DNA of 62,163 bases, the filler included, from Basidiobolus ranarum (Eukaryota), in NCBI GenBank assembly GCA_040143965.1. It is 14 parts of 14 records of this genome, joined end to end, with 100 filler letters (N's around TTAATTAATTAA, not from the genome) between each part and the next. Parts side by side here need not be neighbours in the genome. Positions count along the whole stretch, not along the records: positions 40,070 to 44,410 come from JASJQH010001999.1; 13 more parts are not named here. One strand, 5' to 3'. Below, in pieces: positions 29,606 through 57,937 of this stretch (positions within the stretch are counted from its first letter, which is position 1; each line of letters begins with the position of its first letter). A program made the position numbers and the translations under genes. The notes beneath the pieces were generated by a model that was given only the letters and a program-made list of their open reading frames with translations, did not search any database and had not been told where the DNA came from.

Positions 29606-29880
29606 AGTTGAAGTTAGCATTGCCTAAACACTAATATATTCATACATTGTGTAGTACTTAGTTATCCTATTATTCACTATGATATTATCAATTATTCTCA
29701 ATTGGAATTTACTTAGAATATTTTTACCAAGTTTTAAGTTCTCAGATATATAGATTTTTTCAAACTTGCGCAAGAAGCCCCAAAATTTTCACACATGTTC
29801 CTGGGCCCTTCCTTAACACATTCTACATGCTAGTCTATTTACATCTTGACAAAACCATAAATGTCATCTTTCTACTCATT

Positions 29881-37744: not shown

Positions 37745-39124
37745 CTAAGTCAAATATTCAAAACAAAGCTCCGATGTTTCTGGAGTTAGTAGTTCGCCAG
37801 AGCTGATTTTCAAGGTTCCATTGGTATGGATTGAGTTCTTGGGTAGATACCAACTGTATTGTCGCAGCAATATCGACAAAGAGACCTATTAATGTGAAAT
37901 TTATACCAATACATTGTCTAGAATCAGTACCAAAAGCTAACCAACTAGACGACGCTAATTTATCTTCATCTAAAAACCTTTCTGGTTTAAATACTTCTGG
38001 GTCACTCCAATAGCTTTTGGATCTTTGCATGGAGTAAACATGTGATGCGAATTTCGTTCCAGTTGGGAACAATTTGCCTCGAATCCCAACAGGCTTCGTG
38101 CTTTCACGTGTAGCTAGGCTAACCGCCGGTGGAACTAACCTCATCGCTTCTTTGATTATGTAATGTGAGTAGATAAGCTTATCTGATCGTTCGTTGAATG
38201 TACCGTAGTCGAGTTTCTCTTGGCACTCGCGTTTCTCATTCTCGAGAATTAAATACAAAAGAGTGTTGAATTCTTCCATGTGTGCCATTAGTCTTTTGAT
38301 TTTGGGTAAAGGAAGTTTGGTTAAAATAGGACAAAATAGAACAGTAGGGTCAAATATTCCTTTCATCAATTCGTTGTATAATTTAAGCCTTTGGTTGTCA
38401 GGATTTTGCAACGCCTTAAAGTCGTACCCAAATAGTCCTTGGCTCAACACATCCAAAATCATTCTTTGCATTCGATTATGAGCATCCTGCGTCTGATTGA
38501 TATTTTTATCGATAGCAACGAACAAGTTATACACACTTTCAGCAAAGAGTTTTGTTGGCCAAGGTCGACGGAAAGCAGGTTTGGTCACTTTACGATGGTT
38601 TCTCCTTTCTTCACAGTTACAACTCACCACATTTACACCAAAGAATTTCAACAAAATTGGATTCTTATTCTTGCCAAATAATTGAATTTTCGGGAAGTCC
38701 TCTTGAAGACTGAAGAATCGATGAATTTATGAAAATATTAATCCCAACTATGCTCGTATGCTTACCAGTTTGCGAGCAAATTTTCTTACTGTCTTCTGGA
38801 TCTAACAGAAATACTACCCACATTGCTCCAAAATAAACCTGCTCAAGTAATTATCATCGATATTTTACACAACGAGTTAGCTAGTTAAAATAGCGCACTT
38901 ACCTTTGCTATTTTGTGCTCTTCCTATATCGGTTGTAAATTATTCCGTAATGTACGAGAAAATCCTTCTTTGGAGAATAGCCCTTTGAGTACAGTCATAA
39001 CTGATAGACCAGGAACATCATTCAAATATGACGGTGGCTGGACCCACTTATAGATAAGATGAATGGGAACGAGAGCTACGACAATGGTTGTCAACGGCCC
39101 TGGATATATCAATGGGATTACCAT
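37745..39124 (-). pseudogene. Cytochrome P450 pseudogene
   Basis: N-terminal anchor, EAMR (ExxR), PERF and FGTDSRQCIG are present. There is an in-frame TAG at 38924, the I-helix region is deleted, and a frameshift follows the heme Cys (EQR motif lost relative to the paralog at 39779). Confidence 0.8.
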
Positions 39125-39778: not shown

Positions 39779-39950
39779 CTAAGCCAAATGTTCAAAACGA
39801 AGCTCTGATGTTTCTGGAGCTAATAGCCCGCCAGAGCTGATTTTCAAGGTTCCATTGGTATGGATTGAATCCTTGGGTAGATACCAACTGTATCGTCGCA
39901 GCAACATTGACAAAGAAACTCGTTGCTCCATCAATGAGAAGTTCATACAT
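39779..39950 (-). pseudogene. 3' fragment of a tandem paralogous cytochrome P450
   Basis: MNFSLMEQRVSLSMLLRRYSWYLPKDSIHTNGTLKISSGGLLAPETSELRFEHLA*; highly similar DNA to 37745-37890. Confidence 0.7.
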
Positions 39951-39969
39951 AGATTCAGAAGTGTGATTT

Positions 39970-40069
39970 NNNNNNNNNNNNNNNNNNNNNNNNNNNNNNN
40001 NNNNNNNNNNNNNTTAATTAATTAANNNNNNNNNNNNNNNNNNNNNNNNNNNNNNNNNNNNNNNNNNNN
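39970..40069. other. Artificial contig linker
   Basis: N44-TTAATTAATTAA-N44. Confidence 0.98.
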
Positions 40070-41316: not shown

Positions 41317-42843
41317 TCAGGATATATTCTGCCTGGGAGCAGAGGATTCTACGAATATGCTATTCCTAGACCATGTCTGCTCTTCTGGTACTATCTCTGG
41401 AGCAGCCATGGTGGTCCAAGTTACGTGCTTTACTCCGGTTCCCTCAGCTTCTAATTCACGTCTCATCAATTCATCACTATAATGAGAATTAGTCCGCTGA
41501 AGTGTTTCGATATCTTTGCCACTCCAACTGGGTTTCCTCAACAGCTGTCTATAGGTATCCGCTATCATGCGAGCATCTTTCGCAGTTAGTCGTAAAGAGT
41601 TTTGAAGTTTACCAGAATCCAGCTCAGTTGATTTCTTTGACTCGGGATCCATTTCTATTCGCTGATTGGAGTTCAAAATAAATGAAGAGGGATCCGTATG
41701 TCCTAAGGAGTCCGGTCCATGGGTGGGTAAGGTATCGACCTCATCAAATGTTAAACACACAGTTTTTGGTGGTTGACGACGACGCACTATGAATATTAAT
41801 GTGCACTCTGGAGTTAAGGAAATATCTCTTATTTAACTGACTTGTATGAGTTATAACTTTAAAAAAGGATATAGAGCACTAAGGAGTACGGTTGCAAAGC
41901 AGCTGGCACTGATTCCAATAATTACCCAGGATGGTACCTTTCCCTGATTGGCTGACTGGGAATTACCATTACCGCTAATTATCGCTTCGCCATCACGAAT
42001 ATCACCAGTGGGTTGTGTACCGTATAGGCTTATAGAGGGCCTTTCCAATTTGTTGGATTCATTAACGTTGGTATTTTGTGAATTAGTTGGAGAATTCTGA
42101 CTCGTTGAAGGTGGGGGTTCTTTACAAATCACAAAAATCCATCAGTATTGGAGTACAAATGTGTAAGCGTAAGGGTGCATACCTTCGATATTAAAGATTG
42201 GTCCCCAGGGCTGATGTTCCGACCAGTCACCATGTGGAGTAATCATTAGTCGAAATTGCCTCAAAATACTGACGTTCTCTCGGTTACCTTGGACTTTAGG
42301 AAACCATTCGATATCGTTACTTAAGCCCACGGTCAACAAACCGTCATTATTCTGTATGTTGATCCATTCCTTAACGGGGTTCCGAGTGTCAGTCATCTCG
42401 AATAGTCTTACATCTACAAATCCTTGTACTTTAAACAGGGGGTGGTTATGATTCCATCGGATCATACCGCTCTGGAGTTTTCCTAACATCCAAGTTTCAT
42501 CGGGTTTTGGTAAGCAATAAATATCTGGACCACAATTCTCTTCTAGCACTATCGATAAAGTATAGATGGTGAATTTACGAATTTGGGTGTGATTGGATTT
42601 ATGTGCAAACACAGATCAAAACTAGTACCTACCATCACGTGGTATGACGGAAATAGTTTTGGTGATGCTATTTGTTTCCCACGTTGTAGTTGCTTGAAAG
42701 CTAGAGGAGGTTACGAAAGTTGTACTTGTGGCTTGCCAAGAAGTAGTGCTAGTGGCGGCGAGTACGTGAGATGTACTTGAAATATAATGGAAATAAAATA
42801 CACAGGAGAGTATCGCTCTAAAGGGCACAGGTAGTGGTTTCAT
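41317..42843 (-). CDS. Type I single-pass membrane protein, about 433 aa, 4 exons (42843-42633, 42542-42183, 42119-41873, 41800-41317)
   Basis: Signal-like N-terminus, Ser/Thr-rich stalk, globular domain, TM WVIIGISASCFATVLLSALLIFIV followed by RRR, cytoplasmic tail. Exon phases are consistent (1302 nt total). Confidence 0.8.
41801..41872 (-). other. U12-type (minor spliceosome) AT-AC intron, 72 nt
   Basis: 5' ATATCCTTT, branch site TTCCTTAAC, 3' CAC 12 nt after the branch motif. Removal gives an in-frame continuous TM helix. Confidence 0.85.
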
Positions 42844-51314: not shown

Positions 51315-51987
51315 TTAGATGAAGCCAATCTTGTTGGCAACATCCAAAGCATCAACATCAGCAGTAAGACGAACGTAAGCTTTCTTTTGTCCGTCAGGAC
51401 GAATAAGAGTGTTGATCTTAGCGGCGTCAACGTCATAGAGACGCTTAACAGCCTCACGAATTTGACGCTTGTTAGCACGAACATCACACAAGAATACAAG
51501 AGTGTTGTTGTCCTCAATCTTTTTAATGGCAGTCTCGGTGTTCAATGGTGAGCGAACAACCTCATATTGATCCATGCGGGGGGCACTAGGAACTGATTTG
51601 CGAGGATAGCGAGGAGCACGAGCAAGACGGAGAGTCTTGGGAAGACGGAAGGTTGTGGATGTACGAACTTTACGAGTAGCGTTACCATGGGTACCCTTTA
51701 AGGCAGCCTTCTTGGCGGCCATAGCCTTGTTCTTCTCTGAAGCAACTTTACAAAAGAACAAAGTGTATGTAAATAATTTGATTGATAAATAACTTCCCCG
51801 AAATGGGGTTCTATTTGGTGTCGAGAACGTAGTTAAGGACGAGTGCTTATGTGTGTTATCAATAAGGTAAATGGATGGATGGATAATGATATTGGATGGT
51901 AAACGCACTCGTCCTATTCTTCCGTCCCCAAACCTCCTCTTACTACCAAAACAAGACTCGATATGTACCTTTAGTTTTAGGAGCCAT
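51315..51987 (-). CDS. RPL25: 60S ribosomal protein L25 (uL23), 2 exons (51987-51969, 51745-51315)
   Basis: MAPKTK-VASEK...[14 protein letters not shown]...IEDNNTLVF...[18 protein letters not shown]...DVANKIGFI. Confidence 0.96.
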
Positions 51988-52384
51988 TTCTAAGTAATAT
52001 CTACCCGAAGAATTGAAGAGAAAGAGGAGGGTCTAGGAGCTCAGTTGGTTTTCTTTTGTATGGTGATCCCCAAATATTCTATGAACAAAAGAACCCTCTT
52101 TCGATTTTGAAAGATCAGATTCTGGAAATCGTTAGATCAGTTTGCGCTACATAAGATCCTGATCCTCCAGTTGAAATATACATATAGCACACGATACTTA
52201 TCTTTCCATTTTGCACACAGCTAGATGTGAGATATTGTTGCGAGGGTAAGAACATCTCTTTATCTTGAATGGATAGTTCGAGATACAGTATTTAGCGAGG
52301 TGTCTGTGTCGAAGGATAACGGTGTTTGTCTAGAGGATCTACATATGAAAATTATATAACGTTTCATTATTATTTTAGTCTTTA

Positions 52385-55109: not shown

Positions 55110-56588
55110 AATGTTTGTACAGATCAAGTGTGTCCCTGAATGTCCGTGTAGAGTGATTGGATCTCCATAATAGTATTGTTGGGATGGGTTCACAGTTTAG
55201 TGCGATGTATGGAATCGTCAGGGAATCTCCAGATAAACTTACGCAATAGCATACTTAGTACCACTCTTTGTTCAATCATTAAGAAAGTCATACTGATACA
55301 ACGACGAACACCCCCGACGAAGGGCGACCAAGAAAATAGATCGCAACTCTTGTTATACAGAAACCTTTCAGGGTCGAACTTATAAGGATTCTTCCAAACA
55401 TTGGGGTTGTGGTGTAAACCGTACAGATGAATTCTTGTGTTAGTGCTGGTAGGTATTACATATTCTCTGAATCTTAGTGTCCTAGCAGTGCGACGAGGAG
55501 GGAGAACGGCAACCGGTGGGCAAAGTCGCATAGACTCTCGAATTACTGTTATGATAAATGGCATGTCATTTTGTTGTTGCTCGAAACTTGGGCAGATATC
55601 TTTACATTCATCACCTAATACCTTTGTTTCTCCACTTCGTCTCTTCCCCCTCCTAGATTCCTGGGTGAATACCAAGATAATATATGGCTACCGATAGTGC
55701 ATTGGCTGTGGTATCATGACTTGCAAGCAAAAATTCAACCACATCGTTTCGAATCTCTTCGGATGTTAAATAAAGTTTTTCTTCTTCGCTGGCTTGCAGC
55801 ATTAAAGTCCCCATTTCAGCCGTCTCTTGGTCTACATGTTTGCTGCACAAATTCTCTGCTTTCTCCTCGATGAGACCATAAATGAATCTATCAAACAGAG
55901 CGACCTTTTCAAACAGCATTTCTCGTCTAATAAATGGAATAGAATCCAAGATGGGGAACATGGAGTATAGAAGCTTATTAGCGCCAATCAGGAGCTCATT
56001 ATAAAGATCCACAAAGCTTCCATGCTGGTTTTCCGTTGCCTTGAATTCACAATCGAATATTACTTTTCCCGGTGCGTCTAGGGCCATTCGTGGCATAAAA
56101 TCTGTAACATTAACGCTCAGTCTATTCTCTTCAATCTGCTTGATGATTTTGGAAAATAACTCATCAAACGCCACGGTGGACCAACTTCGATGATATCCAG
56201 GATTGGCGATCCGTCTATGTCTTTTCCACTCCCGACCATTGGAGTTAAATATGTTAACTCGCATGAATCGAGCACTTCAACTTTCCGGGTATTCTTCGGC
56301 TAGAATACTTCTGGCGAAATCCTTGATATCCATCAGAATAGTCTTGACCCATTCAGGCTTGGTAACAAAGACTATCCATTTGCTAATGGTGAATTCTCTA
56401 GCGATACCATGTTTGTTCAGGATGTCCATTGCATATGTGTCGTAACGCTCGAATGCATCCATAGATGCCCTCAGGGTGCCCAACAGTGAGACAGTAGGGA
56501 TTCTTCGTAACAATACTGAGTATTTTAGCTTGACATAAGCCAGGTATTGATGAAGATATTTATACACACCCAAGACTTTGATTCTCAT
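55110..56588 (-). pseudogene. Intronless cytochrome P450, frameshifted (probable pseudogene); 3' boundary approximate
   Basis: Three consecutive ORFs: WKRHRRIANP, I-helix LASHDTTANAL, ESMR, PERF, FVGGVRRCIS. Frameshifts near 56270 and 55660. Confidence 0.8.
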
Positions 56589-57419: not shown

Positions 57420-57726
57420 TCATTTTTCTTTCAATTCAGTATCAAGTATAACTATTGGCTGGGATTCTCCTTCAAAGGAAAGAAGTGGCTTATCCATATT
57501 GCCGGGGACGGCATTGGTATATTGAGATGCTATAGGTGTGGGCTTATTATCGACCTGCGGATGCCCAATATCCCCAACATTGAATGATATCAACGGTTTG
57601 ATTTTTTGAGAACGTGGGTTTTTAAATGGAATCTCCCCCGGCTTTGAATCCAGCTGAAGTAATGGTTGGCCGGGGCTACGTCGAGATACAGTTGTGCGAG
57701 AGCGGGATAGTCCAGTTCGATGTTGC
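57420..57726 (-). CDS. C-terminal ~100 codons of an unidentified gene (truncated)
   Basis: Open frame from the contig edge, QHRTGLSRSRT...DTELKEK*, with repeated (K/Q)P(L/I)(L/I/V)x(F/L) motifs. Confidence 0.5.
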
Positions 57727-57826
57727 NNNNNNNNNNNNNNNNNNNNNNNNNNNNNNNNNNNNNNNNNNNNTTAATTAATTAANNNNNNNNNNNNNNNNNN
57801 NNNNNNNNNNNNNNNNNNNNNNNNNN
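57727..57826. other. Artificial contig linker
   Basis: N44-TTAATTAATTAA-N44. Confidence 0.98.
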
Positions 57827-57937
57827 TTGCACACATGTTCCTGGGGCCTTCCTTAACACATTCTACACGTTAGTTTGTTTACATCTTGACAAAACTATAA
57901 ATGTCAACTGAATACTCAATAAATCAACAAGTGAAAA
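57827..57937 (+). mobile_element. Partial LTR family A
   Basis: TTGCACACATGTTCCTGGG...TACATCTTGACAAAACTATAAATGTCAAC...AAATCAACAAGTGAAA. Confidence 0.75.

Follow-up and report, generated by a model that had tools for sequence, protein, structure and literature searches.

The window, by which we mean the whole stretch of Basidiobolus ranarum DNA that was analysed (62,163 nucleotides, filler included), carries on its minus strand a gene that we propose to be divided into four exons, with a 72-nt candidate U12-type AT-AC intron between the last two. Positions count along the window, and slashes mark junctions. The features of the gene are:

42633..42843, minus strand: exon 1 (proposed), with the ATG at 42843 as putative start; ends GAT G/GTAGGT
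42549..42632, minus strand: intron 1, GT-AG, 84 nt, GTAGGTACTA...TCGATAG
42183..42548, minus strand: exon 2, conserved ectodomain (CGPDIYCLP...GPIFNIE); matches the protein models P0001 and P0002
42120..42182, minus strand: intron 2, GT-AG, 63 nt, GTATGCACCC...TTTGTAAAG
41873..42119, minus strand: exon 3, which codes for the Pro/Ser/Asn-rich stalk and for 15 residues of the transmembrane (TM) helix, counted from just after its GIxxG-type anchor
41801..41872, minus strand: candidate U12-type AT-AC intron, 72 nt, GC 0.29, phase 2
41864..41872, minus strand: its 5' splice site ATATCCTTT, read from the sequence
41813..41821, minus strand: its branch-point sequence TTCCTTAAC, read from the sequence
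41801..41802, minus strand: its 3' terminal AC, read from the sequence
41317..41800, minus strand: exon 4, last 5 helix residues, RRR and cytoplasmic tail; stop at 41319..41317

The plus strand holds only short frames at this gene. Exon 4 is 100% identical to the hypothetical protein K7432_015244 of Basidiobolus ranarum (P0001, an NCBI model) and shows 67% identity to the B. meristosporus protein P0002 (a JGI ortholog model), and the junction across intron 2 (NIE/E PPP) agrees with both. P0001 starts with MVV and lacks the upstream ATG exon at 42633..42843 (minus), which codes for a hydrophobic N-terminal part and a stretch rich in Ser and Thr. When position 41873 is joined to 41800 the frame is kept, and a coding sequence of 1308 nt is open to the stop. 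The resulting 435-aa product consists, in this order, of the hydrophobic, signal-like N-terminus, the Ser/Thr-rich stretch, the ectodomain, the Pro/Ser/Asn-rich stalk, a hydrophobic segment, RRR and a tail of 150 residues. Two motifs in the tail encoded by exon 4 (SLRLT.KDA..IADTYR.LLRKPSW and YSDEL..REL.AEG.GVK) are invariant or nearly so among 10 aligned relatives, and because these conserved motifs lie downstream, the frame of exon 4 must join the upstream frame. The product is very probably a type I membrane glycoprotein from a Psg1/Ykl077w-like family.

The protein family of the host gene

A search with the ectodomain returned 38 representative relatives (E<=0.001), with paralogs from B. 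ranarum and B. meristosporus and proteins from Smittium, Furculomyces, Neoconidiobolus and Calcarisporiella among the named members; a profile search built from 19 relatives yielded at least 9 proteins. Several members carry the UniRef name 'Mid2 domain-containing'. When 10 relatives were tested against PF14610 (Psg1/Ykl077w), all except one matched at E<=0.1 (9/10; positions 27 to ~184 of 186), and a single one of the 10 passed the curated cut-off (P0019, 32.0 vs 30.1). A Pfam scan of the window gene's own exons returned nothing relevant, with 0 matches at E<=1. A metagenome scan for the genomic DNA of relatives, made with a narrowed alignment, matched 69 stretches, of which 0 were confirmed by tblastn.

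By protein comparison, the host belongs to what appears as a distant Psg1-like family of fungal type I membrane glycoproteins that is expanded in Basidiobolus. To the initial annotation of this locus the host had looked lineage-restricted; this holds in so far as the family is restricted to fungi, while the range has to be drawn wider than Basidiobolus, as members occur also in Smittium and the other genera just named. In yeast, Psg1/Ykl077w is described as a type I membrane protein that is connected with the maturation of Pma1 (PMC5607100). The relatives resemble it in their type I layout, in which one helix joins an ectodomain to a tail, and differ from it in that the conserved tail motifs of the window family lie outside the Pfam match.

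Sequence and splice signals of the candidate intron

Across the junctions the minus strand reads ...AGT GCT CT/ATATCCTTTTTTAAAG...ATATTTCCTTAAC TCCAGAGTGCAC/A TTA ATA TTC ATA GTG CGT CGT CGT. The candidate intron opens with ATATCCTTTT (41872..41863, minus), the first eight bases of which, ATATCCTT (41872..41865, minus), have the form of a U12 5' splice site. The motif TCCTTAAC (41820..41813, minus) has that of a U12 branch point; the likely branch A is 41814, which lies 13 nt from the end of the intron. The 12 nt that follow the motif (TCCAGAGTGCAC) run up to the AC terminus and contain no pyrimidine tract. Donor, branch site, spacing and AC terminus of this kind are the textbook marks of U12-type AT-AC introns, in which the branch motif stands about 10-15 nt from the 3' end and a pyrimidine tract is lacking, and for 41872..41801 all four fit the U12 consensus. 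Two AGs, at 41808 and 41806, lie closer to the branch A than the AC does (6 and 8 nt past it), and these are out of frame with the AT-AC donor.

Exon 3 ends GCT CT, with the codon split after two bases, and the join CT/A yields a Leu codon. The AT-AC-joined product has a hydrophobic segment of 24 residues (W...V) followed by RRR, while upon retention of the 72 nt the frame reads YPFLKL and then meets a stop, after 6 codons. On re-reading of the minus strand, the letters and coordinates given for 41801-41872 in the initial annotation all proved correct. The U12 5' site and the branch site 12 nt from the AC that it described are present, its in-frame join to a 24-residue TM segment followed by RRR was reproduced as part of the 435-aa product, and translation likewise returned its retention reading, YPFLKL-stop, with a tail-less product. 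The alternative GT-AG junction which it had pointed out (41889-41806) also exists and is in frame. Protein searches yielded no transcript-derived protein across the junction, the matches being only P0001, the ortholog and one paralog, and an Rfam scan of the window gave 0 matches.

The donor-type motif RTATCCTT shows no enrichment in the window (8 found vs 6.11 expected). The branch motif TCCTTAAC was found 9 times vs 2.18 expected, a count reached in 0 of 100 shuffles, and three of these nine sites sit in a dispersed repeat unconnected with the intron or its gene. Among 1500 simulated windows of equal size (first-order Markov), 41 had at least one donor followed within ~500 nt by a branch motif and an AC or AG terminus. 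The donor/branch motif pair alone is thus only moderately improbable, so that the reading frame and the family context must carry the claim of an AT-AC intron; these lift the candidate well above chance.

The dispersed repeat is ~40 nt long and is present in three copies, at 29810(+), 57850(+) and 53620(-), with the sequence ..CCTGGxCCTTCCTTAACACAxTCTACAxGxTAGT... A second AT-AC pair was noted on the plus strand at 57568..57870 (ATATCC...TTCCTTAAC...AC, with the donor at 57568 and the branch motif at 57851). It is unconvincing and was judged to be no intron, since its donor is ATATCCCC, masked N stands between donor and branch motif, and the branch motif lies in the three-copy repeat.

Public gene models lacking the membrane helix

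The membrane helix is absent from both public models of the gene, P0001 and the ortholog model P0002. P0001 reads ...IISGN/VRRRQ... at this place, and from residue 4 to its end it is reproduced exactly if a much longer intron is assumed:

41787..41966, minus strand: GT-AG intron implied by the public model, 180 nt (P0001, residues 4 to end)

This intron takes out the 72-nt stretch together with 108 nt of open, helix-coding frame. The ortholog model P0002 reads ...NIEV/MIIRRRH... and is also without the helix. It had been anticipated that annotation restricted to GT-AG introns would mis-model this gene, and both P0001 and its ortholog bear this out.

The public model would be right if the 180-nt intron 41966..41787 were indeed removed and the protein had no membrane helix. 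It is a GT-AG intron, it is in frame, it is what the NCBI entry P0001 encodes, and the JGI model P0002 agrees with it in the absence of the helix. However, the model drops a helix that is found in 12/12 intact relatives, fuses the stalk of the ectodomain straight to what in the relatives is a cytoplasmic tail, and requires that an intron contain 108 nt of open helix-coding frame. We consider it scarcely credible. The stop inside the AT-AC intron would force predictors that are limited to GT-AG into just such a helix-less model. With the AT-AC intron in place the gene model is corrected, the public protein being one that has been deprived of its membrane helix.

P0004 (K7432_008223) and P0043 (K7432_008222) are adjacent B. 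ranarum models on one 14-kb contig. They look like the N-terminal ectodomain and the C-terminal tail of one family member, which seems to have been divided at the place expected to hold its stalk, its helix and a presumed minor intron.

Helix length and read-through in relatives

Helix length was counted as the number of uncharged residues from the conserved GIxxG-type anchor to the basic cluster, in 12 intact and 9 non-intact relatives. Every one of the 12 intact relatives has either 20 (7 cases) or 21 (5 cases) such residues. For the window gene, the AT-AC join gives 20 residues and the GT-AG join of 41889..41806 gives 16.

Several of the non-intact models break at one and the same place. 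In P0003 and P0042, both from B. meristosporus, residue 15 is the last before the break and YPL comes next, P0017 (B. ranarum) breaks there and continues with YPF, and P0006 (B. ranarum) does so with YLF; the retained reading of the window also breaks after residue 15, followed by YPF. P0012 stops after residue 14. Its closest relatives, P0014, P0019 and P0041, show a Cys there, which would be consistent with TG/A at the intron junction. P0008 has an odd helix containing Lys and Arg and is uninformative. At the level of protein comparison, the intron position is accordingly common to homologs, as four other models break and continue with Tyr, and a fifth stops one codon earlier. A Tyr or Tyr-Pro after residue 15 is what would be expected from read-through of xx/A TAT CCx. 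That the paralogs have donors of the ATATCC type we infer from their read-through peptides only.

For one locus, K7432_009463, there are two NCBI products, P0044 reading ...AAAGI/ALVVYRRR... (spliced) and P0006 reading ...AAAGI/YLFI-stop (retained). As the two part ways right after residue 15, the intron of K7432_009463 lies at the very same codon, and since its start is read as (I)-Y-L, its first bases cannot be GT; ATATCT would be the natural reading of this donor. The two isoforms presumably rest on transcript data.

These comparisons bear directly on the in-frame GT-AG alternative:

41806..41889, minus strand: rival in-frame GT-AG intron, 84 nt, GTACTCCTTA...CTCCAGAG

If the major spliceosome removed this sequence, the product would have 431 aa and a helix reduced by four residues, and the motifs of U12 type would be coincidental or would serve only as a U2 branch site. 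The helix would then have 16 residues vs 20-21 in 12/12 intact relatives, which is outside the range of the family, even though a 21-residue uncharged run before RRR would be left that could span a membrane. The residues TVLLSAL would be lost, and these have counterparts in all relatives, among them those read-through models which reach residue 15; the Tyr-Pro read-through common to the paralogs would be left unexplained. The U12 motif pair is not astronomically rare (41/1500 simulated windows), and TTAAC could act as a U2 branch site, the fungal U2 branch consensus being CTRAY. The rival donor GTACTC, on the other hand, is unlike the two supported donors of the gene (GTAGGT and GTATGC), a weak argument with n=2; an ORF-bridging heuristic for the U2 splice-site consensus in the window produced 437 candidates, which were too noisy to yield a consensus that could be used. 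All in all, we think it very unlikely that this 84-nt intron is the one removed.

It is also conceivable that the intron is kept, either because the gene is a decaying copy or because the retained form is the product, a tail-less protein of 281 aa ending ...SALYPFLKL. Such a protein could still be anchored by its hydrophobic C-terminus, and P0006 is annotated as the retained isoform of a paralog. However, the downstream frame of 160 codons is open, is 67% identical to the B. meristosporus ortholog and has the family motifs intact, and such an open, conserved frame argues for translation in frame with the upstream exons. Retention as the sole explanation is extremely unlikely.

With signals, reading frame, helix length and the breaks in paralogs taken together, we regard it as very probable that 41872..41801 (minus) is a U12-dependent AT-AC intron inside the TM helix of this B. 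ranarum gene, and the initial annotation was very probably right to propose one.

Proposed splicing of the intron

In the U12 system, U11 and then U6atac pair with the donor, and U12 pairs with the branch-point sequence. Applied to this gene, the U11/U12 di-snRNP would recognise ATATCCTTT (by U11) and TTCCTTAAC (by U12) together across the short intron, U6atac would take the place of U11 at the donor, and the AC 13 nt past the branch A would be picked by distance. The join CT/A would restore a Leu codon and with it a helix of the usual family length, the RRR and the conserved cytoplasmic tail, while a retained form would be without the tail.

Classical AT-AC U12 introns are conserved across paralogous families, for example in voltage-gated channel genes. 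The intron described here is like them in its ATATCCTT donor, in having TCCTTAAC near the AC, in its paralog-conserved position and in its non-zero phase. It is unlike them in that its host family is fungus-restricted and not ancient, and in being very short (72 nt).

Age and spread of the proposed intron

A maximum-likelihood tree was computed from 28 family rows, 20 of them from Basidiobolus, and these 20 form a single clade (support 85/86). Six rows mark the intron site; they come from two species and fall into six different Basidiobolus subclades. Five of the marked subclades are starred for support and the sixth (P0042 with P0008) has 86/59; each comprises a B. ranarum gene and a B. meristosporus or B. 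ranarum partner. Because the mark is visible only where mis-annotation exposes the intron, six is a lower bound on its spread, and the same position in six subclades indicates that the intron is older than the family's radiation within the genus. The phase-2 site, fixed at codon 15 after the GIxxG anchor and common to many Basidiobolus paralogs, thus appears to be inherited through the family expansion. The suggestion in the initial annotation of a relatively recent gain finds no support, as the position is marked in six subclades and two species.

Minor introns in Basidiobolus

Basidiobolus is a zoopagomycote fungus. For B. meristosporus, 249 minor introns (0.554%) have been given, the top density known in fungi, together with a low reconstructed ancestral density in Zoopagomycota and a bias of minor introns to old genes (main points of Larue & Roy 2023, PMC10639083). 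A count of 237 minor introns for the same species has also been published; the same survey names U11, U12 and U6atac for lineages of the zoopagomycotes and, for B. meristosporus, a U4atac that is putative and divergent (Olthof et al. 2024, PMC11347168). That the minor spliceosome is kept in some early-diverging fungi, as had been stated for this locus at the outset, accords with these reports of minor introns and snRNAs in the genus (PMC10639083, PMC11347168). Literature searches for minor introns in Basidiobolus found only these two surveys and their preprints, and the text passages concerned do not mention the host family.

The intron kind is therefore already documented in Basidiobolus, and what is new is a further case that is unannotated in the public model. 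It is like the catalogued minor introns of B. meristosporus in genus and in kind, and differs from that catalogue in that the host is B. ranarum and that the ortholog and paralog models skip the intron or read through it. Being absent from the public model, it would probably be missed by a catalogue of annotated introns. As the same annotation error occurs in several paralogs and in two Basidiobolus annotations, annotation-based counts of minor introns are probably too low. The gene offers a concrete and testable example of a minor intron whose host family is confined to fungi, set against the bias to ancient genes and the rarity of gains that the surveys describe. The family could help to decide the origin of the high minor-intron density in Basidiobolus.

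If the intron arose after the origin of the fungus-restricted family, it would be a post-LECA gain, and an unusual one in view of the bias to old genes reported for minor introns (PMC10639083). A further-reaching idea is that a fungus-restricted family of Psg1-like receptors, when it expanded in Basidiobolus, took along and multiplied one U12 AT-AC intron that sits at a fixed TM-helix codon. We consider this rather unlikely in its entirety. If it were true, part of the minor-intron density of Basidiobolus would consist of paralog copies of a post-LECA intron, and this density would be under-counted, with copies hidden by GT-AG-only annotation. In its boldest form, inefficient minor splicing at this site would act as a putative switch for each receptor: one form would be full-length and have a signalling tail, the other would lack the tail and be anchored only by a hydrophobic C-terminus. 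The initial annotation, too, had proposed that retention could be a regulatory switch; the retained isoform annotated at one paralog locus does not in itself speak for regulation.

Other features of the window

The window contains 26 stretches of 44 N each, arranged as 13 pairs between 4361 and 57826 and recurring every ~4450 bases. They look like inserted masks and not like biology; in the one pair that was read, 12 bases (TTAATTAATTAA) stand between the two stretches. Open frames on the minus strand (37758..38726, 55190..56276 and 39779..40021) look like cytochrome P450 paralogs, with a C-terminal motif of the F..G.R.C.G type, and these P450-like frames may form a tandem family. A further minus-strand frame, 51315..51989, reads by eye like ribosomal protein uL23 (L23a/L25).
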